From assembly GCA_001784285.1 (NCBI GenBank), contig MFQC01000003.1:221517-285516 (forward strand): 64,000 nucleotides of DNA. The letters are read 5' to 3'. A program made the translations under genes and the position numbers. The notes under the pieces were generated by a model. It saw only the letters and a list, made by a program, of their open reading frames with translations. It did no database searches and was not told the DNA's origin. The DNA is from Candidatus Magasanikbacteria bacterium RIFCSPHIGHO2_02_FULL_48_18 (GTDB taxonomy: Bacteria; Patescibacteriota; Patescibacteriia; Magasanikbacterales; UBA922). Positions 2,359 to 42,182 of this stretch are shown one piece after another; within the stretch, counting starts at the first letter, position 1, and each line of letters starts with the position of its first letter.

Positions 2359-3045
2359 CTAACCCAGCAACATCTCTTTTGTAATCTCAAAAAGACTGTT
2401 GACTTCAATATCCGCCTTCGACAAATCTTGTTTCGCCATTGCATTGCTTCCGGAATAATGAACGCCAATACAGCGCATCCCGGCGGCTTTTGCGGCGATA
2501 ACTCCCTTAGCCGCGTCTTCCAAAACGACGCAATGTTCTTCCGGCAGAGCAAGCTGTTGCGCCGTCACCAAAAACGTTTCCGGATCTGGTTTGCCTCGAT
2601 GTAGATTTTCTCCAGACACAACCACATCAAAATATGACTCAAGGCCCAACTGGAGGAGACACAGAGTAATATACTCGAAAGACCCGGAAGAAGCAACGGC
2701 CTTTTTCAATCGTAAATCAAGGACCAGTTCGGTTATTTCTCGGACACCCGGCATGGATTTCCCGTGGCGCTTCACCAAATCAACAAAAAGACGCTGGCGT
2801 TCTCTATACATGTCACCAAAAAATTCTTGAGGAATATGATGGATGGTCATAAGGTCTTTGATCATGTCGCTCACTCGCATCCCCATATATTGTGGATCTG
2901 CATCGTCTCGCAAAAACGGGCCGCTCACATACCGCTCCAAAACCAAACGCGTGGCTTCTGTATGACAAGATACATTATCCACCAACACTTCATCCAAATC
3001 AAAAATAATGGCATCTGTCTGTGTCATATCGTTTATACTACTCAT
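2359..3045 (-). CDS. HAD-superfamily hydrolase (beta-phosphoglucomutase-like phosphatase)
   Basis: N-terminal DxD motif IIFDLDEVLVDN and HAD-IA like C-terminus (GDxxxD). ATG at 3045 overlaps the upstream stop (ATGA) at 3042-3045. Confidence 0.8.
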   Translation of the reverse strand: MSSINDMTQTDAIIFDLDEVLVDNVSCHTEATRLVLERYVSGPFLRDDADPQYMGMRVSDMIKDLMTIHHIPQEFFGDMYRERQRLFVDLVKRHGKSMPGVREITELVLDLRLKKAVASSGSFEYITLCLLQLGLESYFDVVVSGENLHRGKPDPETFLVTAQQLALPEEHCVVLEDAAKGVIAAKAAGMRCIGVHYSGSNAMAKQDLSKADIEVNSLFEITKEMLLG

Positions 3046-4007
3046 ACGCGTCGCAAGGTGGTTATCGGACGGCTTTGCGTAATAAAAAATTTTCCGTTTG
3101 CGTATGCCCATTCAATATCGCATGGAAATCCATAGTGGCATTCTACGGCTTTGCAGAGAGCGGCCAGCTCCAAAATATGGCTCGTATCCATTTTTTGTTT
3201 TTGCCCTTCTTCGCCAAGAGACACCCATATATTTTGCGCTGAGTGCTCTGTTTCAACAGCAGACGCTCGGACCAATTTTTTTGTTTGATGCCCAACACAC
3301 GTCTCTTCAATCGTCATCGCATCTTTCGCAATCACATAGCTATCGGGCGTGACATAGCCCCCGACAATGGCTTCGCCCAAGCCAAACGCGGCTTCGATAA
3401 TCATATGATTTGGATTTTCCGTCACCGGATGGACCGTAAAGGCCACCCCGGATAGTTCGGACTGAACCATTGTCTGGACGACCACCGCCACTGAAACATC
3501 GTGATCAATCAAATTTTTTTCATGGCGATAAAAAATTGCTCTTGCGGTAAACAAAGAAGACCAGCATTGTTTGATACGAGGCACTATATATTCTCTCGTG
3601 GTGTTGAGATATGTTTCGAGCTCCCCTGCCCAACTGGCGACATCAGAATCTTCCGCAGTCGCGCTCGATCGAACGGCAACGAATGGCGAGTGTAATTGAT
3701 CAAATGCGTGATAGATCTCCTCTATAATCTCAGCCGGAAAAGGAGTGTCATGAATCACATCGCGCAATATAGCGCTGGATCGTTCAATGGAGTTAATATC
3801 CTCCGGATGCGTTTCAGCGAGCCGCGCCGCAATTTCTTGTTTGATCTGTGTTGCCGCTATAAACGAATCAAAGGCGGATGACGGAATAACAAAACCCGGC
3901 GGAACCGGAATGCCTGCCTGCGTCAATTCTCCAAGCGATGCGCCCTTGCCGCCGGCAATCGCAACATCCTTTTTTGTGAGTTGTGAAAACCAAAGAATGG
4001 CGCTCAT
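3042..4007 (-). CDS. stand-alone PEP synthase / PPDK N-terminal nucleotide-binding domain protein (PPDK_N, ATP-grasp-like)
   Basis: GGKGASLGEL, AVRSSATAEDSDVASWAGELETYLN and C-terminal CDIEWA motifs typical of PPDK_N. No swivel or TIM-barrel domain follows (321 aa only). Confidence 0.85.
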   Translation of the reverse strand: MSAILWFSQLTKKDVAIAGGKGASLGELTQAGIPVPPGFVIPSSAFDSFIAATQIKQEIAARLAETHPEDINSIERSSAILRDVIHDTPFPAEIIEEIYHAFDQLHSPFVAVRSSATAEDSDVASWAGELETYLNTTREYIVPRIKQCWSSLFTARAIFYRHEKNLIDHDVSVAVVVQTMVQSELSGVAFTVHPVTENPNHMIIEAAFGLGEAIVGGYVTPDSYVIAKDAMTIEETCVGHQTKKLVRASAVETEHSAQNIWVSLGEEGQKQKMDTSHILELAALCKAVECHYGFPCDIEWAYANGKFFITQSRPITTLRRV

Positions 4008-4198
4008 GAGGCATGCGTGACAGAACGAATAAATCCAACCGTATCAAGTTTGAATTTCTTTTCGAGAATTGCTTCAAGCGCTGTGAGAAAATCATGATTG
4101 TCGCAATGTTCAAGCGCCAATTGCATGAGTTCTTTTCTTTTTTCCACCGGAATTGTTTCAAGAGAAAAAAGAAGGGAAAAAATATGCTGTATCACCAT
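4004..4198 (-). CDS. small hypothetical protein (64 aa) translationally coupled to PPDK_N gene
   Basis: Stop TGA overlaps downstream ATG (ATGA at 4004-4007). Alpha-helical-looking sequence. Sits inside the operon. Confidence 0.4.
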   Translation of the reverse strand: MVIQHIFSLLFSLETIPVEKRKELMQLALEHCDNHDFLTALEAILEKKFKLDTVGFIRSVTHAS

Positions 4199-4216
4199 AT
4201 CATGCGACGAAAAAAA

Positions 4217-5323
4217 TTAAATTTTGGTCCGTTTATTTGCAAGCCATTCAAAGGTTGGACCAAAAAATTCACGCCCAAGCGTGGGATACGCTCTTTGCGG
4301 ATCAATAAGAGCACGCACATCCTCAACCGTCATCCCTGCTTTTTTGCCAAGCTCCCAAAGACGGCTGGCATAATCAACCAGGGCACGCTGACCGGAGGAA
4401 AGATTGCCGGACACCTGAACAATTTCCCCTCCAAAATTCACCGTAAAATCTTTCCCCGGCTCCCGCGTGGGATAATCGGTTCCAACCGGAATTTCCGGAT
4501 GGTGTTGCGTAGAAAATGCCTGATCTTTCCCTTCAAATGCGTCCCGGTACGACAGCGCGGCCCATAGACCGGTCGTCGGGCTTTCCGTTAAGACCGCGAC
4601 ACCGCTTATGCCTTCTTTTTGGGGCACCGCAACCGTATTATAGGCCTGAGCGCCAAAGGTATCCCCGAGCCGAGAATACACCGGATGACTCTGCCCGGCG
4701 GCTGTGGGAGTTTCAATCTGCGACCCGGCATTGATAATGCCCGGGATCATTGGCGCGCCGGCTATATGCGCGAGATCCTGATGGCCAAGGCAGACACCCA
4801 CCATAGGCGTTTTTTCACGCAACGCCGCTTCCAGTTCCCGAAGAAGCGGTGTCCGCGATGGGTCGCTTGGATATCCCGGCCCACCGCCGATGCAAACGCC
4901 AATACGATTTTGCAACAAACGATGCATTTTTTCTTGATCTTCAAGAGTAATCGTCCCATCTATACTGACATGGATAACATTTTCCGCAAATCGAGGATCA
5001 ATTTGTACGATTCTTCCTTCGACTTGATAATATATTTCCTCAATATGAGGACGAAACTGTTCTGGCGTGGCGTCGCGGACCCAGCCTGCCGTGAATGGAG
5101 AGGTGACAATGTGAAGTATAGGATCAAAACCATCCACTCGAATGAGCCGCTCCATGGTTTCTGCCGCTTTGTCTGCCTCTTCATCCGTATAGGGCCGGAC
5201 ATCCCGATTGACGCCGAGGTACTCCGCGACATTGGTGATAATTCGCCGCTCTTCGGGAGGCAGGTTCATGCCCTCCAAAAATTCCGGCGTGCGAAATGAT
5301 GTTCCTATTTCTCGTGAATTCAT
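4217..5323 (-). CDS. class I glutamine amidotransferase-like protein (peptidase C26 / gamma-glutamyl hydrolase-like)
   Basis: Nucleophile elbow GVCLGHQ and overall GATase1 topology, with a long N-terminal extension. Confidence 0.7.
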   Translation of the reverse strand: MNSREIGTSFRTPEFLEGMNLPPEERRIITNVAEYLGVNRDVRPYTDEEADKAAETMERLIRVDGFDPILHIVTSPFTAGWVRDATPEQFRPHIEEIYYQVEGRIVQIDPRFAENVIHVSIDGTITLEDQEKMHRLLQNRIGVCIGGGPGYPSDPSRTPLLRELEAALREKTPMVGVCLGHQDLAHIAGAPMIPGIINAGSQIETPTAAGQSHPVYSRLGDTFGAQAYNTVAVPQKEGISGVAVLTESPTTGLWAALSYRDAFEGKDQAFSTQHHPEIPVGTDYPTREPGKDFTVNFGGEIVQVSGNLSSGQRALVDYASRLWELGKKAGMTVEDVRALIDPQRAYPTLGREFFGPTFEWLANKRTKI

Positions 5324-5333
5324 AAAAACGCAA

Positions 5334-6740
5334 TTATTGTTTCTTCACCTGTCCCACAATTTGAAAACATCCATCCTGCATAAGATTGGTCACCAGATTG
5401 TGAGATGACCGAGCCATGGCGCCGACATATCTTCCTTGAATCATGTACGGCCCAAAATCGTGATTGATATATTTTAAGGAAACCTTGTTGTCCTCAACAA
5501 ACGGCTCCGCATGCTGGGGAATCGTTATATATTCCTGCACAATCCACCCGCCGTCTTTGACGCCCCGCGCAATAACTTTTTTCCATTGCGGTTTTGTCAT
5601 TTTTTTGCCAATGCATATATTTGCGCCATAGGTGCCGATGGATGGCTTGATCAAAAGATGTTTTTGTTCTTTGATGAGATAATCAACCAGCTCAACCGTG
5701 TCTCCCATCACGTTCGTTGTTTTTCTCTTTTCAATAATTCTGGTCCACGGACACATATTTCCCAAAATCTGTTTTTGTTTTTCCGTAAGATACGATGAAA
5801 ATCGTTCGTCCGTGAAAAATGCAAAGAGCGCTTTGTGCGCGAATACTGAAGAACTCAGCGGATTGACAATACAGACCGCGCCATCATAAAACGCGCGAAG
5901 AATATCCTGGTAAAGAGGCGTGGTGTCTTCCAAAAGATGGCTCAAATCAAACCATCGCAAAACCAAATCATACGCTGTTCCATGATACCATACTTTTTTG
6001 TCTCGGTAATGGACCTGCTGGACGTCTCCGACAAAAGCATGGCTCCCAAATTTTTGAAATTCCTGGCACAAAAAATCCGAATCCTGATTGTACTGCCCGC
6101 TCCATCGAAGAATCAAGATATTCGGATGCGACGCAGTTCCTCCCCACTGTTTGTATGAATCAAGGAGCGCCCGATACATCTTTTTGGCCCATGTACTATA
6201 GTAGCGTATGTGATATTTTTTTTGAAATGATGCCCAAAAGGGAAACCGTTCAAGGACATCAGTCAAATCTTCAACCCAGCCGGGCGTTGCCGCGCAATTG
6301 GTGTTGAGTTCGTAGACGCGCAACCCATGTTCCGGAGTAATCACGCTGTCAAAACGCGCAAAAATTACCGGATGAGGAAAGGGTGTCGGCGCGCGCAATA
6401 ACTGGACCTCTGTTGTGGTAAGATGAAAATAGGTCTGGACGGCTTTTGACGAAGAAAGGACCTTTTGGAGGGTGGGAAGGACATCAAAAAATGTTTCCGT
6501 CCGCTCTCTGACGTGCCGCTCTATCCGCGGCGTGACAAACCGAGGCTTGATGCCGCCCGCAATAAGGCGGCCATTAAAAAATTTACCGTCCTCAAGCATT
6601 TTGTACCCGTGAAATGCCAGATAATGCGGCAATGTTTTTTTCGTCGCGGCAACATGTTTCTTGAACTCGGCAATATAGTCTTGATCAACCTTGTCAAGAA
6701 ATGCGAATTCTTCTTTTGGGATGATGAGGGTCTGTTTCAT
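5334..6740 (-). CDS. glutathionylspermidine-synthase-like / circularly permuted ATP-grasp family carboxylate-amine ligase (putative)
   Basis: 468 aa. Resembles the GspS/CP-ATP-grasp (DUF407-like) fold by eye (LIKPS.G..G, VQEYI patterns). Not verified. Confidence 0.5.
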   Translation of the reverse strand: MKQTLIIPKEEFAFLDKVDQDYIAEFKKHVAATKKTLPHYLAFHGYKMLEDGKFFNGRLIAGGIKPRFVTPRIERHVRERTETFFDVLPTLQKVLSSSKAVQTYFHLTTTEVQLLRAPTPFPHPVIFARFDSVITPEHGLRVYELNTNCAATPGWVEDLTDVLERFPFWASFQKKYHIRYYSTWAKKMYRALLDSYKQWGGTASHPNILILRWSGQYNQDSDFLCQEFQKFGSHAFVGDVQQVHYRDKKVWYHGTAYDLVLRWFDLSHLLEDTTPLYQDILRAFYDGAVCIVNPLSSSVFAHKALFAFFTDERFSSYLTEKQKQILGNMCPWTRIIEKRKTTNVMGDTVELVDYLIKEQKHLLIKPSIGTYGANICIGKKMTKPQWKKVIARGVKDGGWIVQEYITIPQHAEPFVEDNKVSLKYINHDFGPYMIQGRYVGAMARSSHNLVTNLMQDGCFQIVGQVKKQ

Positions 6741-6749
6741 AAAAAATGA

Positions 6750-8249
6750 TTATAAGATCGTGACAATGCCGCGCGTGGCATCAACCTCGACACGCATCCC
6801 ATCCTTTAGGACATGCGTTGCCGTTGCCGTGCCAACCAAGCACGGAATACCCAACTCTCGACATATAATGGCCGCGTGGCAGTTGAGGCCTCCTTCATCG
6901 GTAATCACGGCGGCGGCTTTTTTCATTGCAGGCACATATTCCGGTTGCGTCATACATGCAACCAGGATATCGCCAACTTCCACATTGGCAATTTCTTTTT
7001 CTCCTCGACACACTTTTACTCGTCCGCATGCTTTTCCAAGGGATGCGCAATTTCCTTTCAATTGCTTTGAATTCGACACGGCAGAGGAGACAAATGAATC
7101 TTGGATATTTTTTCGCTGAAACAAATGGAACAGCTGTTTTGCTTCTTCCCCCGCAAAAAGATATTCCGAAGCATTCTGAAGAAGAACATATAAACTTCCG
7201 GTCCGGCGCTTCGCGAGTTCGTCTTTCATTGTGGAAAGATCTTCCAATTCTGAAATGCGCGTATACCGCGCGTCCTCGATCGGCACACCGGCTCGCTTCG
7301 CAATTTCCGCCAATAAAAAGTCAAGATAATGAACGGATATGGTGAGACACTCCTTTCTTCTGTCATGAATTTGGAATATAGTGTCCTGCATCCGCAACAA
7401 ATCAATCAGTTCGACATTGGATATTTTTTGAAGCAGTGCGCGTTTTTTTTCCAAATGCTCGGGCAGACGTTCATATTCTTGTATGGTTTTTCCAATATCT
7501 TCCGGATGAGTGCTATATCCTTCCAATTCTTTCGTAAAATCTTCTGTTGTGACATACTTCGCCGATGTATAACTATTCAGCTTCCAAAAATATTTTTGCT
7601 GATGACGGCGTATCTTTTCTTGTATAACGGAATCCAATAGCAATGATCCTGCTGTTATTGCCGAGATTTCTTTTTGTGTGGCAAGACGCAAAATACAGCA
7701 CAAATCGTATCGTTCGGTGGTGATAAAAGAATGACGCGATGGCATCGTAAGAAGCATCATCGTATCTGTATCGTCGCCATATTCCTGTGCAACCAAATTC
7801 CGAATACGGCCCTCTGTCACAAGCGTAAACCCCTCAATACAATGAGAAACAGAAAGAAGCCGCCCGCACAAGCGGTTTACCTCCCGCCACAGCGAATAGA
7901 CAATATCCGGTGAAAGAACGGCCCAATTTTCTGATCCAATTTTTTGATATGCGGCCAAAACTTCTGTGCAAATGCGTTCATTTTCTCTCTCTATATACGT
8001 AAGGTACCCGGCATCCTTTGTATATCTTTCCCACAATTCACGAAAGATGCGTTCAAGGTCATCCCATGCGTACAAATAATAGGCTTTTTCCTGTTCAAAG
8101 AAAATAACTGATGCCGTATAACCATACCCCAAAAAAGCCGGCATGTCGCGAACCATCGAAAATGCAGGGCCATAGAGAAGAGCCGGAACGGCATTAAACC
8201 CTTGAAAATACCATTCCTTTTTTGTGAGGTCGGCAAAAAATGATTCCAT
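6750..8249 (-). CDS. PEP-utilizing enzyme mobile (phosphohistidine swivel) domain protein with ~380-aa uncharacterised N-terminal domain
   Basis: C-terminal GDILVACMTQPEYVPAMKKAAAVITDEGGLNCHAAIICRELGIPCLVG is a canonical PEP-utilizers swivel domain with catalytic His. It is paralogous to 61984-63396 and 63393-63986. Confidence 0.8.
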   Translation of the reverse strand: MESFFADLTKKEWYFQGFNAVPALLYGPAFSMVRDMPAFLGYGYTASVIFFEQEKAYYLYAWDDLERIFRELWERYTKDAGYLTYIERENERICTEVLAAYQKIGSENWAVLSPDIVYSLWREVNRLCGRLLSVSHCIEGFTLVTEGRIRNLVAQEYGDDTDTMMLLTMPSRHSFITTERYDLCCILRLATQKEISAITAGSLLLDSVIQEKIRRHQQKYFWKLNSYTSAKYVTTEDFTKELEGYSTHPEDIGKTIQEYERLPEHLEKKRALLQKISNVELIDLLRMQDTIFQIHDRRKECLTISVHYLDFLLAEIAKRAGVPIEDARYTRISELEDLSTMKDELAKRRTGSLYVLLQNASEYLFAGEEAKQLFHLFQRKNIQDSFVSSAVSNSKQLKGNCASLGKACGRVKVCRGEKEIANVEVGDILVACMTQPEYVPAMKKAAAVITDEGGLNCHAAIICRELGIPCLVGTATATHVLKDGMRVEVDATRGIVTIL

Positions 8250-27680: not shown

Positions 27681-28739
27681 TTATTTCGCAGTTTTTTTGG
27701 AAAACCAAATACCTACAAACAGCATGAGCATCCCTAAAAAAAGAAGCGCTACCATTTTTTGTCTGCTTTGCAAAAACAATGTCGTAATGCCAAACGAAAA
27801 AGAAATACCATACAAAATCAACACGGCCTGGCGATGCGACATGCCGGATTCAAGGAGTTTAAAATGCAAGTGTTCCCTATCGCCCACGTACAACGGACGG
27901 TTTGCCCGCAGACGACGCGCCATAACCCGAATCATATCAAGCATGGGAACACCCACCACAAGAAGGGTTGTTGCAATTTTTCCTCCGGAAATAATGGCAA
28001 GCGACCCCAAAAGAAAACCGGAAAACAAACTGCCACCTTGACCGAGAAATATCTTTGCCGGGTGCCAATTCCAAAACAAAAAACCAAGACACGATCCTGC
28101 AAACACAATCGCGAGGAGCGCCACGTCCGGCTGGTACCACTGTTTTTGCAGACTCAAGAAAAAAATCATAAGCGCGCCTATTGCCACGATCCCAGTTACC
28201 AAACCGTCGAGCCCATCAAGAAGTTTGGTCGTAAACATCATGCCCATAAGCCAAAAAAAGACCACGATGTCCGCAAGCACGACCCAGTTTCCCAATCCAT
28301 CAATAGGGATAACGAAACGATCCAAACGAATTTCCCCGCCAAACGGATTAGTAATCATGTGCGGACCAATACCAAAAGCGATAATAATGAGTGCGGCAAA
28401 GACAGCAAAAAAAAGTTGATATCGCGCTTTCAAATTTTTTCGATCATCAAGAATGCCGCCAATCATCAAAACCAATGAGCCAAAAAAAAGACCCCACAGG
28501 TGTCTTGGCAAAACAGTATGTTCCGCGGGGGTTTGCACAAAAGAAAATATAATCCAGACCAGGAAAAAAAATGATACAAAAATGGCAATCCCTCCGCCAA
28601 GAGGGATGGTTTTGGTATGAATTTTTCGATCAAGCGCTTTGGGCCGGTCCACAATATCGAGCCGCAACATAAGGCGGCGAATGCCCGCGGTAAGGCAAAA
28701 AGAAAGGGTAAGGGCAAAGAAGAAAAAAAAGAAATACAT
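27681..28739 (-). CDS. MraY/WecA-family polyprenol-phosphate N-acetylhexosamine-1-phosphate transferase
   Basis: Multi-TM protein with the conserved DD..D cytoplasmic loops. The ORF track extends to 29144, but that 5' extension lies in an antisense high-GC region, so MYFFFF at 28739 was chosen. Confidence 0.75.
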   Translation of the reverse strand: MYFFFFFFALTLSFCLTAGIRRLMLRLDIVDRPKALDRKIHTKTIPLGGGIAIFVSFFFLVWIIFSFVQTPAEHTVLPRHLWGLFFGSLVLMIGGILDDRKNLKARYQLFFAVFAALIIIAFGIGPHMITNPFGGEIRLDRFVIPIDGLGNWVVLADIVVFFWLMGMMFTTKLLDGLDGLVTGIVAIGALMIFFLSLQKQWYQPDVALLAIVFAGSCLGFLFWNWHPAKIFLGQGGSLFSGFLLGSLAIISGGKIATTLLVVGVPMLDMIRVMARRLRANRPLYVGDREHLHFKLLESGMSHRQAVLILYGISFSFGITTLFLQSRQKMVALLFLGMLMLFVGIWFSKKTAK

Positions 28740-28862
28740 ACAGGTCTTTGGCAAAAACAGCCATACGGTATTCCAAAGTATACCTGACGACAGGTGGCCT
28801 TGACAACTCTCTCTCTTTGCTATGATCGGCGGTTGTTCGTCCGCATTTTTTGAGGTAAAAAC

Positions 28863-29222
28863 ATGAACTTCATCGCGAACAACATCGATTGGATTTTCCC
28901 CCTTCTCTGCATGGCCCTTTTCTTCGGGGGTTTTTTCTGGAGCAAGACCCTGTGGCTGCGGCGGCCCGGCAAGCCCCGGGCCAAGCCGGGGACGACGTGG
29001 AGTGTGGTCGCAAACCTCTCCCCCTCCTACCTCCTGGTCGTCCGCCCTTACGGGGGCGACGATGCGAGCTGCCAGCTCTGGCAGCTCCCGAGGAGCTCTG
29101 TGAGCCTCCTCTCCTACCCGGTCGGCACGAAATTCGTCGCCCAAAAGGGCGGCCGCTTCGCAAAGCTCGAGACCGAAAAGGAAGAGCCTTCTTCAAATGA
29201 CCGCAAGGTCAGGAGTATCTGA
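28863..29222 (+). CDS. small high-GC (GC3-biased) gene, foreign composition; N-terminal TM/signal-anchor
   Basis: Third codon positions are almost all G/C, unlike the host. Starts MNFIANNIDWIFPLLCMALFFGGFFWSK. Confidence 0.45.
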   Translation: MNFIANNIDWIFPLLCMALFFGGFFWSKTLWLRRPGKPRAKPGTTWSVVANLSPSYLLVVRPYGGDDASCQLWQLPRSSVSLLSYPVGTKFVAQKGGRFAKLETEKEEPSSNDRKVRSI

Positions 29223-29892: not shown

Positions 29893-29935
29893 TGTCCCTC
29901 CCCCTAAGGGAGGAGGACAGGAGAGGGGTCACTTC
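29893..29935. repeat. second G-rich hairpin (cctccc-cctaa-gggagg) plus second copy of direct repeat ggaggacaggag, upstream of DUF559 gene
   Basis: 12-nt identical direct repeat with 29435-29446. Confidence 0.6.
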
Positions 29936-32694
29936 GCCCCTTCCACCTTTATCTTCCCGCCCTCCCCAATGACCACAGTATCGCGCCGTTTCAACTTGCC
30001 GCCCAATACCAACTCTGCCAAGTTATTTTCTACGGTGTCCTGAATGGCGCGGCGCATTGGGCGCGCACCAAATTCAGGATCAAATCCCACATCGGCCAAT
30101 GATTCGAGCGCCGCGGCGTCCACGCGCAAAAAAACGCCGCGTTTTTCCAAATCTTTTTCAACGCGTTTCAACATGAGTCCTGCCACCTGTTTTATTTCTT
30201 CTCTATCCAACGCTCGAAAAAGAACAATGCCGTCAAAACGGTTGAGAAATTCCGGACGATAATATTTTTTTAATTCACCGCGAATCAACGACTGACGAAT
30301 TTCTTCGAGCTCGACGCCCTTCCCGAGCTGATCGGCAACATATTGCGTTCCTGCGTTTGAAGTCGCAATAATAATCGTATTGGTAAAATCAATGAGTCGG
30401 CCCACGCTGTCGGTCAAGCGTCCGTCGTCAAAGACCTGTAAAAATAAATTGAGCACATCCGGATCCGCTTTTTCCATTTCATCAAATAACACCAAGGAAA
30501 AAGGATGCTGACGCACAGCCTCGGTAAGAATGCCGCTCCCCTGCTGTCCGGGCTGGCCGATAAGACGATAGATCCCGCTTTTATCTTGATATTCGCTCAT
30601 GTCTACGCGAATCATGCGATCTTCCCCGCCAAAATACACATCCGCGATAGTTTTTGCCAATTCGGTTTTTCCAACACCGGTTGGCCCTAAAAAAAGAAAA
30701 TTCGCGATTGGTTTTTTTTGCGACCGAATTTCCGCGCGAGCGCGGCGCAAAGCATTGGCAACCAGGAGCACGGCTTGATGCTGGCCAATCACGCGCTTGT
30801 GCATCTCTTCTTCCAGGCGCAACAATTTTGATGATTCATCTTCGGAAATGGTCGTCACCGGAATACCGGTTTTTTCATGAATAATGGTGGCGACATCATC
30901 GGCCGCGACCAGCTGTTGTTCTCCTTTATGATTCCGCGTATAGCTTGCCGCCTCGGTCATAATGGAAATTGCGCTTTCCGGAAGTCGCTGATCTTGAAGA
31001 AATCTACCGGCCAATTTGACGGACTGCTCCAAAGCGGCGTATGAAAAAAAGACATTGTGTTTGTATTCAATGGATCCCACTTTCGATTCCAACACCTGAA
31101 TAGCCTGGTTTTCATCCATTTCGTTGATATCCACGCGTGAAAACACAGTGCCTAATTCGGAATTGAGAATGTGCTTGTTGTATGCATCGAGCGTGGTTGT
31201 CGCCAATGTTAAAAATTTTCCCGGCCCCAAAAACTCAGAAAGCGTTTCGGACACGTCGAGGCCTTCCTGCCCATTCGTGTTTTCAATGGTCATGAGGTCG
31301 TGGATATTTTTGATAAAAAGAATGATATTGCCCGCTTTCCCGACCTCGCGCATCATCGACATCAATCGCTCTTGCGCCCCGCTCATGGTGGCGCCGGCCA
31401 AGAGAGCGGATGTTGAAAGCTGTACCAATCGCTTGTCACGCAGACGTTGGGGCGTGTCGTCCGCAATCATTTTTTGGGTAATGCCTTCAATGATGCTCAT
31501 CTTCCCCACCCCATGCTCTCCAACCAACAGCACGCTATGACGGCCGCCTTCAATGATGCGAAAAATTTCTTCTATCTCTTTATCACGCGCCACGCACGGC
31601 GGCATGTAGCCGTATTTCGCCGCCATCGTCAGGTCTTGGCTAAAATTGTTGAGATACGGTGTCGCAACCGCGGTCATGGCCCGATCGAGCCCATATTTGC
31701 TTCTATGCGCCGCCGCGCGTTGCAGGCGCCGAAACTGCGTATGCAGGCGCTCCCGAATGCGTAACCACGCAACCACATTGGTCAATTTATTTTTATCAAT
31801 ATCCAAATCATAGAGCAATTCCTGAATGGCGTCCGACTGCTGGACGGTTGCCAAAAGCAATTCCGTGATATGGACATATTCTTGTTTTGCGTGATACGCG
31901 GACTCATACGCGTGAAACATAATTTGCTGGACGTCGGCCGATAAGCCGGGCTCTCGTGATTCTAGAGCGGATGATTGAAACGCCTGTTTGAGACGCGCCT
32001 GAACATTGTCGGGATGAATGCCAAGACGGATAAAGACCATCCCTATTTTTTGCGCGGACAGAAGGGCCGAAAATACATGAAACGGCGTCACTTCTCCGTG
32101 GCCGGATTGGTACGCCAGTATATAGGCACGTTCCAATACGGCCCGTGTCTCCGGGGTAAAGGTATCCGCGATATCCAGTCGTTTTCTATGCGGCATACGG
32201 CGAACCTCTTGCCACGAACCAAGCGTCGCACTCGATTCCTCAGGTGTTTTTTCTTTTGCCCCTTCGTAGCCCGCATGTTCCACCAATGTTTGGGGCTTTT
32301 GATCTGCGATAAGACGATACACAAAAAAACTGAACGATACGACAGAAAACCAAAAGAGCATGCGGGCAGAATCGGCGCTTGTCATCCAATAATGAAGGGT
32401 AAAGACATTATTCAAAATTGGTCTTGAAGAAAGGACATACAGGTATAGCGCCAAAAAGCCAACACCAAAAACAACAGATCCAGTCAGCTCAAACATTTTT
32501 TTCCATCGTCGCACATGCCGGACCGTCACATGATACCGGGTAAGCGGTTCGCCCCAATAGAGCAACACCCCCCGCGCTATTCGCGCAACCGTCATGCCAT
32601 GGCACGACGAACAACGGCGAAATCCGCGATATCCGGCTCCGTGACATGCACCACAACGAAGAAGCGCAAGTGAAGCATTTTTGGTGAAGAGCAT
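29929..32694 (-). CDS. ClpC/ClpB-family AAA+ chaperone ATPase with N-terminal Cys4 zinc-ribbon + 2 TM extension
   Basis: Clp_N (TPFHVFSALL), NBD1 (GEHGVGKMS, degenerate Walker A), NBD2 (GPTGVGKTELAK), sensor regions. N-terminal CGACHG..CSSCHG then hydrophobic helices. Alternative internal start MPHRKR at 32196. Confidence 0.9.
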   Translation of the reverse strand: MLFTKNASLALLRCGACHGAGYRGFRRCSSCHGMTVARIARGVLLYWGEPLTRYHVTVRHVRRWKKMFELTGSVVFGVGFLALYLYVLSSRPILNNVFTLHYWMTSADSARMLFWFSVVSFSFFVYRLIADQKPQTLVEHAGYEGAKEKTPEESSATLGSWQEVRRMPHRKRLDIADTFTPETRAVLERAYILAYQSGHGEVTPFHVFSALLSAQKIGMVFIRLGIHPDNVQARLKQAFQSSALESREPGLSADVQQIMFHAYESAYHAKQEYVHITELLLATVQQSDAIQELLYDLDIDKNKLTNVVAWLRIRERLHTQFRRLQRAAAHRSKYGLDRAMTAVATPYLNNFSQDLTMAAKYGYMPPCVARDKEIEEIFRIIEGGRHSVLLVGEHGVGKMSIIEGITQKMIADDTPQRLRDKRLVQLSTSALLAGATMSGAQERLMSMMREVGKAGNIILFIKNIHDLMTIENTNGQEGLDVSETLSEFLGPGKFLTLATTTLDAYNKHILNSELGTVFSRVDINEMDENQAIQVLESKVGSIEYKHNVFFSYAALEQSVKLAGRFLQDQRLPESAISIMTEAASYTRNHKGEQQLVAADDVATIIHEKTGIPVTTISEDESSKLLRLEEEMHKRVIGQHQAVLLVANALRRARAEIRSQKKPIANFLFLGPTGVGKTELAKTIADVYFGGEDRMIRVDMSEYQDKSGIYRLIGQPGQQGSGILTEAVRQHPFSLVLFDEMEKADPDVLNLFLQVFDDGRLTDSVGRLIDFTNTIIIATSNAGTQYVADQLGKGVELEEIRQSLIRGELKKYYRPEFLNRFDGIVLFRALDREEIKQVAGLMLKRVEKDLEKRGVFLRVDAAALESLADVGFDPEFGARPMRRAIQDTVENNLAELVLGGKLKRRDTVVIGEGGKIKVEGAK

Positions 32695-35091: not shown

Positions 35092-35457
35092 CTAAGGACG
35101 AGAATCAGCAGAACCCAAAACCACGATTTCCTTATTGGAATACACGGTGGAGAGAGAAACAAACAAATTCTCACCCACCCATGCCCCAATCAAGGCGCCG
35201 GCCTTCAGGGTCGAGAGACACTCAAAGCTACCACCCTGGTCAACCCCATAAGGAAATTCGTACTCCCCAAGCGTGCCGAGACCGTGGAATCTGAGACTAA
35301 TAGAAACCATTTTCTGGCCGTTCAAGGAGAACCGCTCGACCTTAACACTGCTCAACGTCCCAACGAAGCCAAAACGCTTCCCCTCGAGATACCGGACCCC
35401 GTGCCCGACCATTCCCTTGAGGATCTTCTCGGTTTCGTGTACGGTTTTATCCGCCAT
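35092..35457 (-). CDS. hypothetical protein (121 aa)
   Basis: ORF with protein-like composition. Divergent from the ATP-grasp gene. Followed by a GGGGAGG..CCTCCCC hairpin at 35046-35070. Confidence 0.4.
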   Translation of the reverse strand: MADKTVHETEKILKGMVGHGVRYLEGKRFGFVGTLSSVKVERFSLNGQKMVSISLRFHGLGTLGEYEFPYGVDQGGSFECLSTLKAGALIGAWVGENLFVSLSTVYSNKEIVVLGSADSRP

Positions 35458-35529: not shown

Positions 35530-35558
35530 TTGAAAAAGCACCAAAAATTGCTATACTT
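35530..35558 (+). promoter_or_regulatory. sigma-70-like promoter TTGAAA-16-TATACT giving a near-leaderless ATP-grasp transcript
   Basis: -10 ends 5 nt before the ATG at 35564. Confidence 0.4.
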
Positions 35559-35563
35559 GGGGA

Positions 35564-36787
35564 ATGAAGCAAGAAAAAAAAATAGGGAGCCGTCCCGTGA
35601 TCTATGTTACGCGAGACATCGAACGCGCCCTGGGGCTTCCACTCGATACGCGTGGGTATTTTGTTGTTGCCAACAAAACCGACTTTGCAGTGTCAATCGC
35701 CAAAAATAATAAAAATGTCTTATTGATAAAAGAAAAAAAACTGCTCGACACGCGGGAACTTTTAGCGCATAAAAAAACAAAAGCGTTCATCGCACCATTT
35801 GCACAACCCAAAATTATGGTGTTTAAAAATACCCCCCAGATTGAACGCATCTGTCATGAAAGCGGCTGGCCTCTTTTGAACCCACCCTCGTTGCTTTCAA
35901 ATCGGGTAGAAGAAAAATTGTCCCAACTCTCTTGGCTTGGCGCGCTCTCTTCTTATCTTCCGCCACACACCAAGGAAGAGTGCAACAACATCACATGGCA
36001 AGACATCCCCTTTATGCTCCAGTTTAATCGCGCGCATACCGGACTTGGGACCACATTCATTACATCAAAAAAACAACTCCGAGCGATTCAAAAAAAATTC
36101 CCCAAACGGGAGGCGCGCGTCACCGCGTATATTGACGGCCCCATGTTTACGGTAAACGCGGTTGTCACGGACAGCACCATTCTGGTTGGCAATATCAGTT
36201 ATCAAATTACCGGACTGAAACCGTTTACCGACGAACGATTCGCGACCGTCGGAAATGACTGGATGCTCCCATCCATACTTCTTAATGCCGAACAACGCAC
36301 CCGTATTGCAACCTTGGCGAGGTATGTCGGGAAACGTCTCAAAAAAGACGGTTGGCTTGGTCTCTTTGGCATTGACGTGATATGCGAAAAAAAAACGGGC
36401 AAACTTTTTCTTATCGAAATCAACGCGCGCCAGCCAGCATCAGCGGTCTTTGAGTCGTGGCTCCAAAAAAAACAAAAAAAAACACAGCCAAAAACACAAA
36501 CGATTTGTGAAGCCCATATATGCGCGCTTCTCAAAAAGAAAACCCATCTTCCTCTCACAAACATAAAAAACGGGGCGCAACTCGTTCAGCGCGTCACAAA
36601 AAAAAGACACACACTGCGGAAAATAATTCCCGGCCAACACCATGGATTTTTTGTGATCCCCTATGCCAATACCGATCACAACGCCGACCTTTTGCGTATC
36701 CAGTCCGATACATGGGTTATGCAAAAAAATGGTATACTGAATACGACGGGAAAGGAAATTCTTTCGCTGGTTCACGATATGGTGTAA
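35564..36787 (+). CDS. ATP-grasp domain carboxylate-amine ligase
   Basis: GLFGIDVICEKKTGKLFLIEINARQPAS is an ATP-grasp C-terminal motif. Confidence 0.75.
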   Translation: MKQEKKIGSRPVIYVTRDIERALGLPLDTRGYFVVANKTDFAVSIAKNNKNVLLIKEKKLLDTRELLAHKKTKAFIAPFAQPKIMVFKNTPQIERICHESGWPLLNPPSLLSNRVEEKLSQLSWLGALSSYLPPHTKEECNNITWQDIPFMLQFNRAHTGLGTTFITSKKQLRAIQKKFPKREARVTAYIDGPMFTVNAVVTDSTILVGNISYQITGLKPFTDERFATVGNDWMLPSILLNAEQRTRIATLARYVGKRLKKDGWLGLFGIDVICEKKTGKLFLIEINARQPASAVFESWLQKKQKKTQPKTQTICEAHICALLKKKTHLPLTNIKNGAQLVQRVTKKRHTLRKIIPGQHHGFFVIPYANTDHNADLLRIQSDTWVMQKNGILNTTGKEILSLVHDMV

Positions 36788-36792
36788 ACGCT

Positions 36793-37569
36793 ATGCAAAC
36801 AAAAACGCTTTCCGAATACGCCATGCGCGTGATTCATGAGTATTGTCACCTCCCTTTTTCGGCAGTCTCAGTCCCCTGCCCGTATTTTAATAATCGCCGA
36901 ATCAAAATGCGCGGCGCCCTCCGGGTTCTTATTGGCAAAGGAACGCCGCAAGAAATTGTGGATGAAGCGCATATTATTGCGCTCAAAGAACATCTCCCCA
37001 TTGATGAATATAACGCGGATACGCTCAGACAATTTTTGACCGATCACCAGCTGGGCGTTGATTGCTCCGGATTGGTCTACCATGTCCTCAATGCGGAACA
37101 CCGTGGACGACTCAAAAAAATGCTTTCCTTTCCCCATGCAAAAAATCCGATCAGAACATTGCTCACGCACTTGAGACCTGCAGAAAACACTGGCGTCAAA
37201 ACATTTTCACACGACGCAAACAGTCGCGTTGTTGCAATAAAAGACGCGAATCCGGGAGACATGATTGTGTTTTTGGAAACCGGAAAATTTGCGACGCCCG
37301 ACCACATGTTGGTTATCCATACCGTAGAATATGAAAATACTGTGCCCGTCATGCTCCATTATACGCATGCCTTGCCATGGTCAACTGATGGAAAAAATAA
37401 TACCCATGTGCGTCAAGGAATAATACATATTATAAATCCGGAAAATCCGCTCAGCGAACAAGAATGGAGAGAAGAAGAAAAGACGGGGGAAGAAAATGAG
37501 ACATTCCAGCTTGGAAGAAGCGCCAAACGACTTGAAATGAGAAAATTGAACTGCTGGAGCTGTGTATAG
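36793..37569 (+). CDS. NlpC/P60-family papain-like hydrolase (putative amidase), cytoplasmic
   Basis: GVDCSGLVYHVL (catalytic Cys), GDMIVFLETGKFATPDHMLVIH (His), HYTHA. No signal peptide. Start chosen at the ATG at 36793 just after the upstream stop. Confidence 0.5.
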   Translation: MQTKTLSEYAMRVIHEYCHLPFSAVSVPCPYFNNRRIKMRGALRVLIGKGTPQEIVDEAHIIALKEHLPIDEYNADTLRQFLTDHQLGVDCSGLVYHVLNAEHRGRLKKMLSFPHAKNPIRTLLTHLRPAENTGVKTFSHDANSRVVAIKDANPGDMIVFLETGKFATPDHMLVIHTVEYENTVPVMLHYTHALPWSTDGKNNTHVRQGIIHIINPENPLSEQEWREEEKTGEENETFQLGRSAKRLEMRKLNCWSCV

Positions 37570-37696: not shown

Positions 37697-37725
37697 TTGA
37701 CGAAAAAATAAAAAAATTATATACT
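37697..37725 (+). promoter_or_regulatory. promoter TTGACG-17-TATACT for tRNA-Thr(GGT)
   Basis: Consensus-like hexamers 15 nt upstream of the tRNA 5' end. Confidence 0.5.
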
Positions 37726-37739
37726 TTTTCTCGCGTCAA

Positions 37740-37812
37740 TGCCGTCTTAGCTCAGTTGGTAGAGCGCCGCCATGGTAAGGCTGAGGTCTCGGGTTCGATC
37801 CCCGAAGACGGC
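37740..37812 (+). tRNA. tRNA-Thr (anticodon GGT)
   Basis: Manual cloverleaf: acceptor GCCGTCT/AGACGGC, D stem GCTC/GAGC, anticodon loop AT-GGT-AA, T arm TCGGG-TTCGATC-CCCGA, discriminator T. No encoded CCA. Confidence 0.85.
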
Positions 37813-37978
37813 TCGAAAAATATGGAGGCTGGTCGGTTCTCTCTTCGAGCAGATCACAACCGAGCTGACGGCACGAACCGAAGCCGCCGTGGCGCGCGGG
37901 GCTGAGGACTCCTTCCTCACCGCCCTCCGCGCCCACATCGAGAGGGCGCTCGGCGTCACCCTGCCGCCGCTCTCCTGA
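37813..37978 (+). pseudogene. high-GC 3' gene remnant (C-terminal about 50 codons ...EQITTELTARTEAAVARGAEDSFLTALRAHIERALGVTLPPLS*) abutting the tRNA 3' end
   Basis: Strong GC3 bias. The reading frame runs back into the tRNA, so there is no possible N-terminus. Confidence 0.4.
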
Positions 37979-38116: not shown

Positions 38117-38814
38117 ATGAATGTTACTGTCGCCCTTGTCCAATATGCTATTGCTCACCTTGAACCCAAAACAAATATAGAGCGGGCCGAATATTTTATA
38201 CAAAAAGCATCCAAAGAACACGCAAACGTCGTCGTGTTTCCTGAAGATTTCATCACTGCGTCAATTTTTGGCAATCAAGAAAATCTGAATCATGGCGATG
38301 AATACCGCCGCACATTCCAAAGGTTCTTGGGATCTACCACAAAAATCATCCCTATATTTCTGAAAAATCATTCATAGACCCGGGGACGGATATTACCGTA
38401 TTTAACACCGCATACGGCAAAGCCGGCATTATTATTTGCTGGGACATTGTATTCCTGGAGATATTTGAACGAATGAAACAATTGGGAGTGCGTGTCGTCT
38501 TTTGTCCCAGTTATTGGTATAAAGAAATTGCAGGAGAAGGCGCTAAATGGAATTCCACGTGTGAAGAAGATCATATTGACGCCCTCTGCCGTACGCGAGC
38601 CCTTGAAAACAACATCATGTTTATTTACGCAAACGCCGCCGGCGTGATGAAATTTCCAAACGGAACTGTGGATACCCTCATTGGACACTCGCAAATAACA
38701 CTCCCCATTGTTGGGCCGGTTGCAAAAACAGAACATAATAATGAAACCATGATCGTGCACACAGTGGATCTTTCTATTTTGGATATTGGCAGAAAAGAAT
38801 ACTGGCTCGTATAA
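38117..38814 (+). pseudogene. nitrilase-superfamily carbon-nitrogen hydrolase, frameshifted
   Basis: N-part (VVVFPEDFI, catalytic Glu) stops at 38375-38377. The catalytic Cys region (KAGIIICWDI) continues in the +2 frame from 38374. The junction lies in the poly-A run ctgaaaaatca. Confidence 0.7.
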
Positions 38815-40494: not shown

Positions 40495-41949
40495 TTAGGC
40501 CTGCGCGACGGCCGGGAACGTGGTGATGGAGGTAGAACGGCTGGCCTGCATCGGCTCAACCGCTACCCCCGCCAGCACCTTGCCCGTGACCTCTTCAATA
40601 CCCCCATAGTGGGGGTATCCGGCCTCACGGTAATCCCGGATCATGTCGACCAGGACTTGCAGGGCGGCCCGGAGCTGGTCACCCTGCTTGGAGTGGGTCA
40701 CCCGAAGGCCACGGATGACCTGGCCGTTCTCGATGTCCTGGAAGCCGGACAGTGGGATGCAGTAGGTGAACTTCGGAAGATCACCGTTCCGCTCCCCGTC
40801 CCGAGCCGCGGCGATCGACGCGAGCAGACGGTGGAGAAGGAGCTGGACCTCGTCGAGTTGGGGGTCCTCGAACACCACGACGTCGTAGTAGGCCCCCTGG
40901 CCGGAAATGAGCCGAAGCCCAGAGACGTACCCCAGAACTTCTCTCGCGATGCGTCGGTTGTCGGCCATCTCCTGGTTGAGCGCCCAGAAGTAGGCAGGCA
41001 ACCCCTCCGGCCCGAAGTCGTTCACGAGTACAGCGAGGGCATGCTGTACGTTCATGAAGTTGTTGACTCCGAGCCAGAGGTTGCTCCAGGGGACCAGAAG
41101 TTGCCGGATGCGCCGGTCGAGGGTCGTGAGTCGGCCGAGCCGCGCAGACGTGATGCAGGCCGTCTTGGACCAGGCCGCGGTCGAGATCGTCCGCGAAAGC
41201 CCGAGTTCGAGGATTGAGCGCGGCAGTCCATCGCTGACGCCGTAGTACTCTTCGTCCGCAAGGACGCACGTCTCACGGCGTTGCGGGTCGAGAAGAAAAT
41301 CTCTGACTGCTCCGAGCTCATCGTCGTCCCAGTTCTTAGCGGTCGGGTTTCCCGGCCGCTCGATGACGACGAGACGGCTCTCCTGCTTGACCCGCCGCAA
41401 CAGACTCGGCGTCACACGGAATCCCTCGCTAGGGTCCGTGGTGATGGCCTGCACCGAACGGCCGAGAAGCTTGCAGATGACCGGTGTGTTCGGCCAGGAA
41501 GGCCGAAACACGGTTACCAGATCTCCTGGCCGTGTGACGAGATTGATCGCCCCAAAGACAGCCCCGATCCCCCCGGGGGTGATCATGCTGTCCTCGGAGG
41601 TGATCCGGACTCCAGTCATCCCTGTCAGGTTCTGGGCGAGCGCGTCGAGAAGCACCTGCTCGCCGAAGGCCTGAGGGTAGGACTCGGGGTGACGCGGGTC
41701 GGCCACGATCGCGCGATAGATGCGATCCGGCGGCAAACGCGACAGACTGCCGACCGCGAGATGTGTGACCGGAACGCCGAGCTTTTCCGCGGTGCGGACG
41801 AGTGGGCGAAGCCGCCGAAGAATCGGCGTCTCGCCCATCATGACCAGGTTTGTCGGGTTCAAGTGGTACGCCCCCTGGCTCGGGCGTTCCACCGTGGTTC
41901 TTGCGCCATAGCCAAGGGCGGCCATAAGCGCTTCACCGGTTGGAGCCAT
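40495..41949 (-). CDS. class I/II PLP-dependent aminotransferase, high-GC foreign gene
   Basis: AWSKTACITSARLGRL (PLP-lysine motif SxSKxxxxxGxRxG) and ERPGNPT. GC3-biased codons, roughly 62% GC versus about 45% background (visual estimate). Start MAPTGEAL at 41949. Confidence 0.8.
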   Translation of the reverse strand: MAPTGEALMAALGYGARTTVERPSQGAYHLNPTNLVMMGETPILRRLRPLVRTAEKLGVPVTHLAVGSLSRLPPDRIYRAIVADPRHPESYPQAFGEQVLLDALAQNLTGMTGVRITSEDSMITPGGIGAVFGAINLVTRPGDLVTVFRPSWPNTPVICKLLGRSVQAITTDPSEGFRVTPSLLRRVKQESRLVVIERPGNPTAKNWDDDELGAVRDFLLDPQRRETCVLADEEYYGVSDGLPRSILELGLSRTISTAAWSKTACITSARLGRLTTLDRRIRQLLVPWSNLWLGVNNFMNVQHALAVLVNDFGPEGLPAYFWALNQEMADNRRIAREVLGYVSGLRLISGQGAYYDVVVFEDPQLDEVQLLLHRLLASIAAARDGERNGDLPKFTYCIPLSGFQDIENGQVIRGLRVTHSKQGDQLRAALQVLVDMIRDYREAGYPHYGGIEEVTGKVLAGVAVEPMQASRSTSITTFPAVAQA

Positions 41950-42182
41950 AACTGCTCTCCTCTGGTTTTTGGTTTTGGCAGTCCCCTTGTGAAACTGCCG
42001 TGAATGGCGTTTTGCCTCAAAACCCAAATTCGGACAGACAGGATGTCCAAAACAGGGTCGCAAAAACGAGGGCGCCACCCTCGTTGAAGCCCGCGGTCCT
42101 CCATCTCCGCGGTTGAGAAAAAGTAAACTTGATTTTTGATGAACAAAGGACTTTACCCCGACAAAAGTCGGGACAAAGATCC

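Follow-up and report, generated by a model that had tools for sequence, protein, structure and literature searches.

What would a bacterium do with a predicted ATP-grasp ligase and a predicted papain-fold cysteine hydrolase, encoded by two neighbouring genes and kept together throughout a whole lineage? The question is raised by a stretch of 64,000 nucleotides from the genome of Candidatus Magasanikbacteria bacterium RIFCSPHIGHO2_02_FULL_48_18 (contig MFQC01000003.1; the whole stretch is called the window here), in which gene A, for the ligase, is followed by gene B, for the hydrolase. Proteins of identical sequence, annotated as hypothetical, are encoded in a metagenome-assembled genome of a Candidatus Magasanikbacteria organism from groundwater, whose contig MFQL01000010.1 (GCA_001783045.1) matches the window. 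In literature searches on ATP-grasp/NlpC pairs and on peptidoglycan of Magasanikbacteria and Patescibacteria, the A-B pair was found nowhere described; the term "C40" used in pseudomurein papers is the name of a phylogenetic model, not of the peptidase family. Here we show that A and B are obligatory partners and tentatively propose that, as a ligase/amidase couple, they work on peptidoglycan precursors in the cytoplasm.

Gene A and gene B are found together

Relatives of gene A were collected by a profile scan with one genome per species. The scan gave 409 relatives, and all neighbourhood counts reported here come from the best 80 of these 409. Seventy-six of the 80 loci are evaluable, the remaining four ending at a contig edge. 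In all 76, A is followed immediately by B in the same orientation, and in four of them the two genes form a single fused open reading frame (ORF). The same association is seen from the side of gene B, for which a profile scan of metagenome contigs gave 72 evaluable loci. A is adjacent or fused to B in 61 of them and lies 1-3.8 kb away in eight more (convergently in two), which makes 69/72 with A next to or near B; three have no A in the flank covered. An earlier note, made from the letters of the window alone, had called the two genes a ligase/hydrolase pair and named co-occurrence in relatives beforehand as a point on which this could fail. The partnership is obligatory in both search directions.

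The two reading frames and the 5-nt gap between them were confirmed on the sequence as the note had placed them. Such a gap is consistent with translational coupling. In part of the family the connection is closer still. In a representative library of 1.84 billion proteins, family B has 611 members at E<=1e-3, and fusions were counted among the best 150 B representatives. Twenty-six of these are 612-779 aa long and carry B at the C-terminus. Four long representatives (P0134, P0186, P0205 and P0222) are clean fusions with A N-terminal and B C-terminal, and a Pfam scan of five others detected ATP-grasp in two (sub-threshold to clear), NLPC_P60 in one and nothing in two. Altogether, A-B fusions make up about 5-17% of family members.

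Conservation of A and B extends over hundreds of genomes, which puts the observation far beyond chance. Nearly all A-B loci belong to one order-level lineage, and the pair is apparently confined to Magasanikbacteria and a few other Patescibacteria, which agrees with the lineage specificity suggested in the note. Among the window's own neighbours, A and B are the only genes conserved side by side in relatives: none of the 18 other genes tested between 25.4 and 45.3 kb stands beside A-B in more than 11/80 of them.

Gene A encodes a predicted ATP-grasp ligase

For each of the two families, residue invariance and domain matches were counted in 36 diverse homologues. Protein A scores 27.2 bits against Pfam ATP-grasp_3, above the gathering score of 23.2. 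Its AlphaFold model, built on the 36 homologues, has a pLDDT (predicted local distance difference test) of 93.5 and a pTM (predicted template modelling score) of 0.91, and a Foldseek comparison of this model with the PDB gave 557 matches at E<=1e-3. The best full-length structural neighbours are PurK, PurT, the L-amino-acid ligase 3vot of Bacillus licheniformis, biotin carboxylases and PurD, with E of about 1e-16 and template modelling (TM) scores of 0.6-0.7. Residues D271, E285, N287, R289, Q290 and P291 are invariant, and so is the N-terminal motif Y14-x-x-R17-D18-x-E20-R21-x-x-G24. The segment LIEINARQP aligns with the IDINA motif of ITPK1. The ATP-grasp assignment, which in the note leaned on the motif IEINARQP, is thus borne out by the Pfam match, by the fold and by the invariance of the motif itself.

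Matches to models of named ATP-grasp families are partial or weak. The NCBIfam model PRK06524 ("biotin carboxylase", NF005096) matches all 36 members in part. The putative pseudomurein ATP-grasp model (NCBIfam NF053643, Ddl_archaea) matches 32/36 with a best E of 1e-8, and the model of the L-Asp-L-Met ligase LdmS matches 11/36, both far under cut-off; five members match the PurT model. Ddl structures are not among the top 50 PDB neighbours of the A model, and sequence searches of the PDB with the A and B proteins and with both profiles returned nothing significant. Because fold and catalytic residues are intact and no named family is close, we consider A an active-looking, probably carboxylate-amine (or carboxylate-activating) ATP-grasp enzyme of a putative undescribed subfamily, as judged from alignment and model. 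Neither family has a signal peptide or membrane segment, hydrophobic segments being found in 0/36 A and 0/36 B sequences.

ATP-grasp ligases related to peptidoglycan are known; Enterococcus faecium, for instance, has a D-aspartate ligase, Asl(fm). A shares with Ddl/VanA, Asl(fm) and the pseudomurein enzyme (NF053643) the ATP-grasp fold and weak profile matches (Ddl_archaea, Ddl). It also adjoins murB, mraY and murC in relatives, which is a frequent place of ddl in other bacteria. Unlike the Ddl-type ligases, A stays far under all family cut-offs, has an obligatory cysteine-hydrolase partner and is optionally fused to a Nudix domain.

Gene B encodes a divergent NlpC/P60-like protein

Gene B was taken to start at 36793, where all 36 aligned homologues begin. 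Its sequence carries DCSGLV and GDMIVF, and the predicted catalytic residues Cys91, His171 and His192 are invariant. The NlpC/P60-like cluster (cluster II) of the superfamily is marked by a C-H-H triad, a GD motif on strand beta1 and a partner Arg on beta5 (PMC10318531). In B, the GD motif (G155-D156) is conserved at >=90%, before strand 157-161 and before His171, and R251, conserved to the same degree, lies in strand 246-252 (beta5). The papain-like core is preceded by a helical N-terminal extension of about 85 aa, which is family-specific and contains invariant PYFNN30-34 and GKG48-50. Evidently, the Cys-His pattern without signal peptide that the note had read from the letters is a property of the whole family.

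Its expectation of an NLPC_P60 or CHAP match holds for the relatives and fails for the window protein. The latter scores 17.1 bits against Pfam NLPC_P60 (PF00877) at a gathering threshold of 23 (E 0.005) and likewise stays below the threshold of PF05257. At E<=0.1, NLPC_P60 is matched by 33/36 homologues (best E 1e-5), CHAP by 13/36 and Amidase_6 by 11/36, and a few B relatives already have a precomputed PF00877 match. The predicted model of B has a pLDDT of 90.9. Its top PDB matches are the papain-fold protein IdeC/Mac-1, the NlpC/P60 structures 4fdy and 4hpe and the CHAP structure 4csh, all weak (E>=7.5e-3, query-normalised TM<=0.30); comparison with BFVD gave a similar, equally weak papain-fold picture. 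Because the window B is under the Pfam threshold and its relatives match weakly, B is best described as a superfamily relative and not as a member of the curated family. Because it lacks a hydrophobic segment and is fused to a cytoplasmic ATP-grasp enzyme in some species, it is assigned to the cytoplasm. On sequence and model, B would be a cytoplasmic and highly divergent branch of the NlpC/P60/CHAP superfamily, outside the curated C40 family.

With the NlpC/P60 (C40) amidases and peptidases B shares the papain-like core, the C-H-H triad, the GD motif and the beta5 Arg. A further common feature is an accessory N-terminal domain that probably shapes specificity, and B may plausibly take part in the handling of wall peptides. 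Among the C40 enzymes treated in PMC10318531, YkfC-type gamma-D-Glu-L-Lys endopeptidases and DUF1460 amidases (Xu et al. 2014, as cited there) are examples with defined recognition of peptidoglycan fragments. Unlike these examples, B scores under the Pfam threshold, has no structural neighbour at E<1e-3, lacks an SH3b domain and a signal peptide, and is coupled to an ATP-grasp enzyme.

Cleavage of gamma-glutamyl amide bonds is the classic activity of NlpC/P60 enzymes (Anantharaman and Aravind 2003, as cited in PMC10318531), and this speaks for a first alternative, in which B would be no antagonist of A. It could instead act like a glutaminase, cleaving a gamma-glutamyl amide such as glutamine and passing ammonia or an amine to A, which would amidate an ATP-activated carboxylate of a wall precursor, in the manner of MurT/GatD or carbamoyl-phosphate synthetase (CPSase). 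Genes that pair strictly, are translationally coupled (here across 5 nt) and often fuse are what one expects of a glutaminase and its synthetase, and A carries the E-x-N-x-R motif common to carbamoyl-phosphate synthetase and biotin carboxylase, with a weak match to the CPSase large-subunit model in 4/36 members. The lipid II amidotransferase MurT/GatD, too, is a complex of the products of adjacent genes, one activating a carboxylate with ATP and the other a hydrolase of the Cys-His type; it acts in the cytoplasm, where the stem peptide is modified. Its folds, however, are those of a Mur ligase and a class-I-like glutamine amidotransferase (GATase), whereas A and B have ATP-grasp and NlpC/P60-like folds, so that the likeness is an analogy only. 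We know of no NlpC/P60-fold enzyme that serves as an ammonia-channelling glutaminase, and consider an amidotransferase distinctly improbable.

Features of the A-B locus are listed in Table 1.

Table 1. Positions of A-B features in the window and frequencies of neighbouring genes in related loci
Feature	Position	Strand	Basis	Loci
Promoter-like site, sigma-70 type: -35 TTGAAA (35530-35535), 16-nt spacer, extended -10 TGcTATACT (hexamer 35552-35557)	35530-35557	+	10/12 matches, TG present	
Gene A, predicted three-domain ATP-grasp carboxylate-amine ligase, 407 aa	35564-36787	+	Profile, predicted structure, 36-homologue alignment	
LIEINARQP codons (residues 283-291), E-x-N-x-R metal/acyl-phosphate motif	36410-36436	+	Sequence, alignment	
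A-B spacer ACGCT, 5 nt	36788-36792	+	Sequence	
Gene B, putative cytoplasmic divergent NlpC/P60/CHAP-superfamily protein, 258 aa	36793-37569	+	Alignment, profiles, predicted structure	
Cys91 codon, predicted nucleophile, N-terminus of helix 91-102, motif DCSG	37063-37065	+	Alignment, model	
His171 codon, predicted general base, start of strand 171-181	37303-37305	+	Alignment, model; motif definition PMC10318531	
His192 codon, predicted third triad residue, end of hairpin partner strand 184-193	37366-37368	+	Alignment, model	
murB, divergent upstream				70/80
hpf				62/80
mraY, downstream				50/80
Arginyltransferase-like gene				45/80
murC/mpl-type Mur ligase				39/80

Genomic neighbourhood of the pair

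Clustering of the neighbours in the 80 loci revealed a usual arrangement. On one side, murB, hpf and secA follow each other divergently from A, murB being nearest; on the other, B is followed by mraY, an arginyltransferase-like gene and a murC/mpl-type ligase, all in the direction of A, and then in some loci by a LysW-like zinc ribbon and an enzyme dependent on pyridoxal phosphate (PLP). The metagenome loci display a similar pattern. The neighbouring murB scores 301 bits, over its cut-off, and mraY 184 bits, slightly under the cut-off of 192 and with the MraY signature present; the Mur ligase reaches 247 bits for each of mpl and murC, under both cut-offs. One Taylorbacteria locus lacks murB, whereas murC, mraY and the arginyltransferase-like gene are all found near A-B.

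The window has another arrangement, shared with two related loci, L015 (Paceibacter) and L031. Here mraZ, rsmH, ftsL, a membrane protein gene and ClpC run divergently from A, in this order, and A is followed by B as everywhere. The mraZ-rsmH-ftsL setting is a second, independent cell-division and wall context. Still other neighbours are found in L013, L071 and L027. Since the neighbours differ between the usual murB/mraY loci, the window-type loci and these others, A-B is a mobile two-gene unit, which in most cases has come to lie beside cell-wall or division genes after rearrangement.

Several genes of the window were considered as further wall genes and rejected. The Glycos_transf_4 gene (27681-29144) was not detectable as MraY by tblastn with the MraY of a relative. 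A supposed penicillin-binding protein (29929-32694) is actually ClpB/ClpC-like. A supposed division and cell wall (dcw) cluster at 47.5-58.6 kb actually consists of ribosome recycling factor, a BNR protein, holB, a glycosyltransferase, ribD, ribBA, mreB and DUF4012. In about 0.9 Mb of Magasanikbacteria loci no canonical Ddl or second ATP-grasp gene was found, a span from which absence from the genomes does not follow.

The gene between mraY and the murC/mpl-type ligase resembles arginyl-tRNA-protein transferases (L085:11482-12144 and L065:5944-6714, for example), with matches to Pfam ATE_C and to the NCBIfam arginyltransferase model (E 9e-12). Placed as it is, its product might serve as a Fem-like transferase that depends on aminoacyl-tRNA and has wall precursors as substrates.

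Just 3' of the murC/mpl gene, and beside a threonine-synthase-like PLP enzyme, lies a gene for a LysW-type zinc ribbon of 54-56 aa (L085:13525-13689 and L084:15676-15846, both on the minus strand, and 24 further loci). Its C-terminus E-[IV]-V-D-E-G-K is strongly conserved and ends in Lys, whereas genuine LysW carriers end in Glu. It was not found in the window.

This small protein bears on the idea that A-B runs a modification cycle, A attaching an amino acid to a protein or small carrier at a carboxylate, as LysX does on LysW or as RimK does, and B removing it. Iyer et al. are said to have predicted ATP-grasp/peptidase tagging systems in 2009, and a zinc-ribbon gene (54 aa, C-terminus VDEGK) a few kilobases downstream, present in 26 related loci, would offer a carrier. 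It stands, however, on the opposite strand, several genes off, and is absent from the window. Structurally, A is nearer to PurK, PurT, biotin carboxylase and L-amino-acid ligases than to RimK or LysX, and a RimK-related model matches 1/36 of its members. The small ORF upstream of A (35092-35457), tried as a substrate protein, has no homologue in the 80 loci. We judge a cycle of this kind very improbable.

Comparison with known ligase/amidase couples

The E. coli glutathionylspermidine (Gsp) synthetase/amidase joins an ATP-grasp-type ligase and a papain-fold (CHAP) amidase in one polypeptide (PMC10318531). Like this enzyme (GspSA) and trypanothione synthetase-amidase, A-B combines a predicted ATP-grasp-type carboxylate-amine ligase with a predicted papain-fold Cys-His amidase in one polypeptide or operon, in the cytoplasm. 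The parallel, drawn already in the earlier note, is valid for architecture only. A has no match to Pfam GSP_synth at E<=1, and A-B fusions have the ligase N-terminal, whereas GspSA has its CHAP amidase N-terminal and the synthetase C-terminal. Because of the missing GSP_synth domain and the reversed domain order, A-B stands outside the Gsp family. B differs further in its C-H-H triad with a unique 85-aa N-terminal extension, and the context of A-B is one of wall precursors, not of thiol or polyamine genes.

The note had gone on to suggest a small amide-linked metabolite, or else a peptide tag. In the former case, A would make a lineage-specific amide-linked molecule and B would hydrolyse it, as a regulated synthetase/amidase couple unrelated to the wall and following the same logic as the E. 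coli enzyme. A-B fusions exist, CHAP is matched by part of the B members, and no wall-precursor gene was found within the 64-kb window, all of which would suit such a cycle. What it does not account for is the company A-B keeps, murB, mraY and murC/mpl in one setting or mraZ-rsmH-ftsL in the other, with no thiol or polyamine genes appearing; guilt by association fits peptidoglycan precursors better than either suggestion. A metabolite cycle would also leave the Nudix fusion unexplained, and the lack of a GSP_synth match and the opposite order of domains take away from the comparison on which it draws. On balance we hold it to be unlikely.

A further argument of the note, that a parallel pair exists at 4217-6740, is not supported. 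The gene at 4217-5323 encodes a class-I glutamine amidotransferase, and the one at 5334-6740 reaches 25.6 bits with the model of circularly permuted ATP-grasp type 2, whose threshold is 32; these are unrelated families. Since they differ from those of A and B, the argument of two parallel pairs adds no evidence on A-B; the 18 genes compared with the loci of relatives did not include this pair. The pair is flanked by a gene for a pyruvate phosphate dikinase (PPDK) N-terminal nucleotide-binding domain (3042-4007) and one for a phosphoenolpyruvate-utilising mobile domain protein (6750-8249), and the whole region (3042-8249, minus strand) unusually brings together four genes for split phosphotransfer and ligase domains.

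Among named genes, the nearest relative of the A core is a PRK06524-type gene on plasmid p1 of Roseobacter ponti (NZ_CP048789.1, 51932-58297, locus L087). Only the central domain aligns, over residues 151-289 with 28% identity. Like A, this gene has a cysteine-nucleophile amidohydrolase gene directly after it, there a C45 peptidase of the N-terminal nucleophile (Ntn) type rather than an NlpC/P60 protein. By analogy, this hints that an ATP-grasp enzyme with a Cys amidohydrolase may be a recurring design. The Roseobacter locus further includes a carbon-nitrogen (CN) hydrolase and an aminotransferase upstream and adjoining peptide ABC-transporter genes. A CN hydrolase and an aminotransferase are also present downstream of A-B in the window, and were considered as parts of the system; they stand beside A-B in 0/80 relatives. 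As they are not conserved there, their resemblance to the Roseobacter locus is probably a coincidence.

Nudix domains fused to A

Some A proteins, about 15% of them, end in a Nudix domain. This domain, of 140 aa and with a canonical Nudix box, was found in 13/80 genome loci and in ten metagenome loci, and B is still the next gene. No A-Nudix-B triple fusions were seen among the long representatives examined. The fusion is consistent with a nucleoside-diphosphate-linked substrate, such as the peptide-bearing uridine diphosphate-N-acetylmuramic acid (UDP-MurNAc-peptide).

Stand-alone Nudix-like genes lie just 3' of the murC/mpl gene in several loci (L016:11846-12406, L046:11993-12622, L059:7163-7717 and L078:7236-7790), the one in L016 being NudE-like (E 8.5e-11). 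Association of Nudix proteins with the cluster is therefore wider than the fusions to A. One A homologue (L054:5911-7593) has another C-terminal extension of about 136 aa in place of the Nudix domain, with a weak match to SbnI (ParB-like/O-phospho-L-serine synthase, E 2.6e-5).

Possible role in peptidoglycan precursor metabolism

We favour, with due reserve, the reading that A and B are a ligase/amidase couple working on cytoplasmic peptidoglycan precursors, because murB, mraY and murC/mpl-type genes are their neighbours in relatives and mraZ-rsmH-ftsL in the window. The substrate, the direction in which B works (hydrolase or transferase) and the link to the cell wall are what we infer in this reading. 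A and B would then be a self-contained, co-translated two-enzyme module in the cytoplasm, sharing a pool of UDP-MurNAc-peptide or of its peptide building blocks. At the expense of ATP, A would convert a carboxylate into an acyl-phosphate and couple it to an amine, and by this either extend the stem peptide by an amino acid or amine, or make a short peptide destined for the stem. B, through Cys91, His171 and His192, would attack an amide in the shared pool via a thioester intermediate, and might either remove or edit the bond made by A, or trim salvaged wall peptides for reuse by A and the Mur ligases. The product would then pass to MraY.

Several observations weigh against this proposal. Cleavage of wall precursors by a peptidase inside the cell would be a waste if it were neither regulated nor restricted to faulty or salvaged peptides. 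Two unrelated genes, hpf (62/80 loci) and secA, are kept in the A-B block as well, and the context comes nearly entirely from one order-level lineage; for these reasons, part of the synteny may be inherited and not functional. Within the 64-kb window, murB, mraY and murC were not found. No characterised enzyme is close to A or B in sequence. The window A reaches 55.7 bits against PRK06524, whose cut-off is 684, over residues 66-290 only, and 18.6 bits against Ddl (TIGR01205), whose cut-off is 245.65 and which 5/36 members match with E>=7e-4. The structural matches of B include none better than E 5e-3, with query-normalised TM<=0.31, and the Nudix domain fused to A could not be assigned to a subfamily.

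Bacteria of the candidate phyla radiation are uncultured and host-dependent and have minimal genomes, which raises the question how so few biosynthetic genes can suffice for a cell wall. One may go further and ask whether A and B, with the optional Nudix domain, represent an unrecognised cytoplasmic step in peptidoglycan precursor synthesis or salvage in these bacteria, which we hold conceivable but rather doubtful. Such a step might be that of an ATP-grasp/NlpC-P60 amidotransferase or a tailoring ligase leading to a non-canonical stem peptide. Another variant might be the salvage of host-derived wall peptides, in place of a canonical enzyme, Ddl or MurT/GatD for example.

With murB on one side and mraY on the other in most relatives, A-B is a concrete and testable candidate for a non-canonical wall-precursor step or for wall-peptide salvage, and its interest would be the higher if the former role proved true. 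B would represent a new, very divergent intracellular branch of the NlpC/P60 superfamily and A a new ATP-grasp subfamily, both in a new context. Together they would be a second natural couple of an ATP-grasp ligase and a papain-fold hydrolase, independent of glutathionylspermidine synthetase/amidase. Should the wall link be wrong, A-B would remain a pair of uncharacterised enzymes and would appeal chiefly to specialists in enzyme families.

Promoter and start of gene A

The promoter-like site proposed in the note, TTGAAA-16-TATACT, is present upstream of A, and its -10 hexamer ends 6 nt, not 5 nt, before the ATG. This geometry is conserved: a hexamer with >=5/6 matches to TATAAT ends 6-10 nt before the homologous ATG in 48/65 relatives, as compared with 6.4% at random positions, and the -35 element of relatives is usually TTGCCA or TTGCAA. 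In 56 relatives scored, no Shine-Dalgarno-like sequence was found before the homologous ATG. The conserved distance from the -10 hexamer to the ATG supports the leaderless mRNA implied by the note, which, as far as sequence can tell, is plausible. In relatives, A consistently starts with an ATG that precedes the conserved [IV]Y[VI]TRDIER motif by 9-13 codons. Only in the window is there a possible alternative start, an in-frame GTG (35597) which AGGGAG precedes at 7 nt. The stop codon of A is the TAA at 36785-36787.

Other genes near the pair

The small ORF at 35092-35457 (minus strand), divergent from A, encodes 121 aa, has no Pfam match and is a gene call in public assemblies. Directly 3' of B lies a gene for tRNA-Thr(GGT) (37741-37814, plus strand) with a promoter-like site of its own, TTGACG-17-TATACT, at 37697-37725. 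The carbon-nitrogen hydrolase (nitrilase-family) gene downstream appears to be divided between an ORF of 86 aa (38117-38377) and one of 113 aa (38473-38814, both on the plus strand), likewise in three assemblies of this organism (L081-L083), and may be a pseudogene or contain a frameshift. The class I/II aminotransferase gene (40495-42078, minus strand) lies in a 2-kb stretch with a G+C content of 59%, as against about 44-50% elsewhere in the window, and this outlying composition suggests that the region was recently acquired by horizontal transfer.

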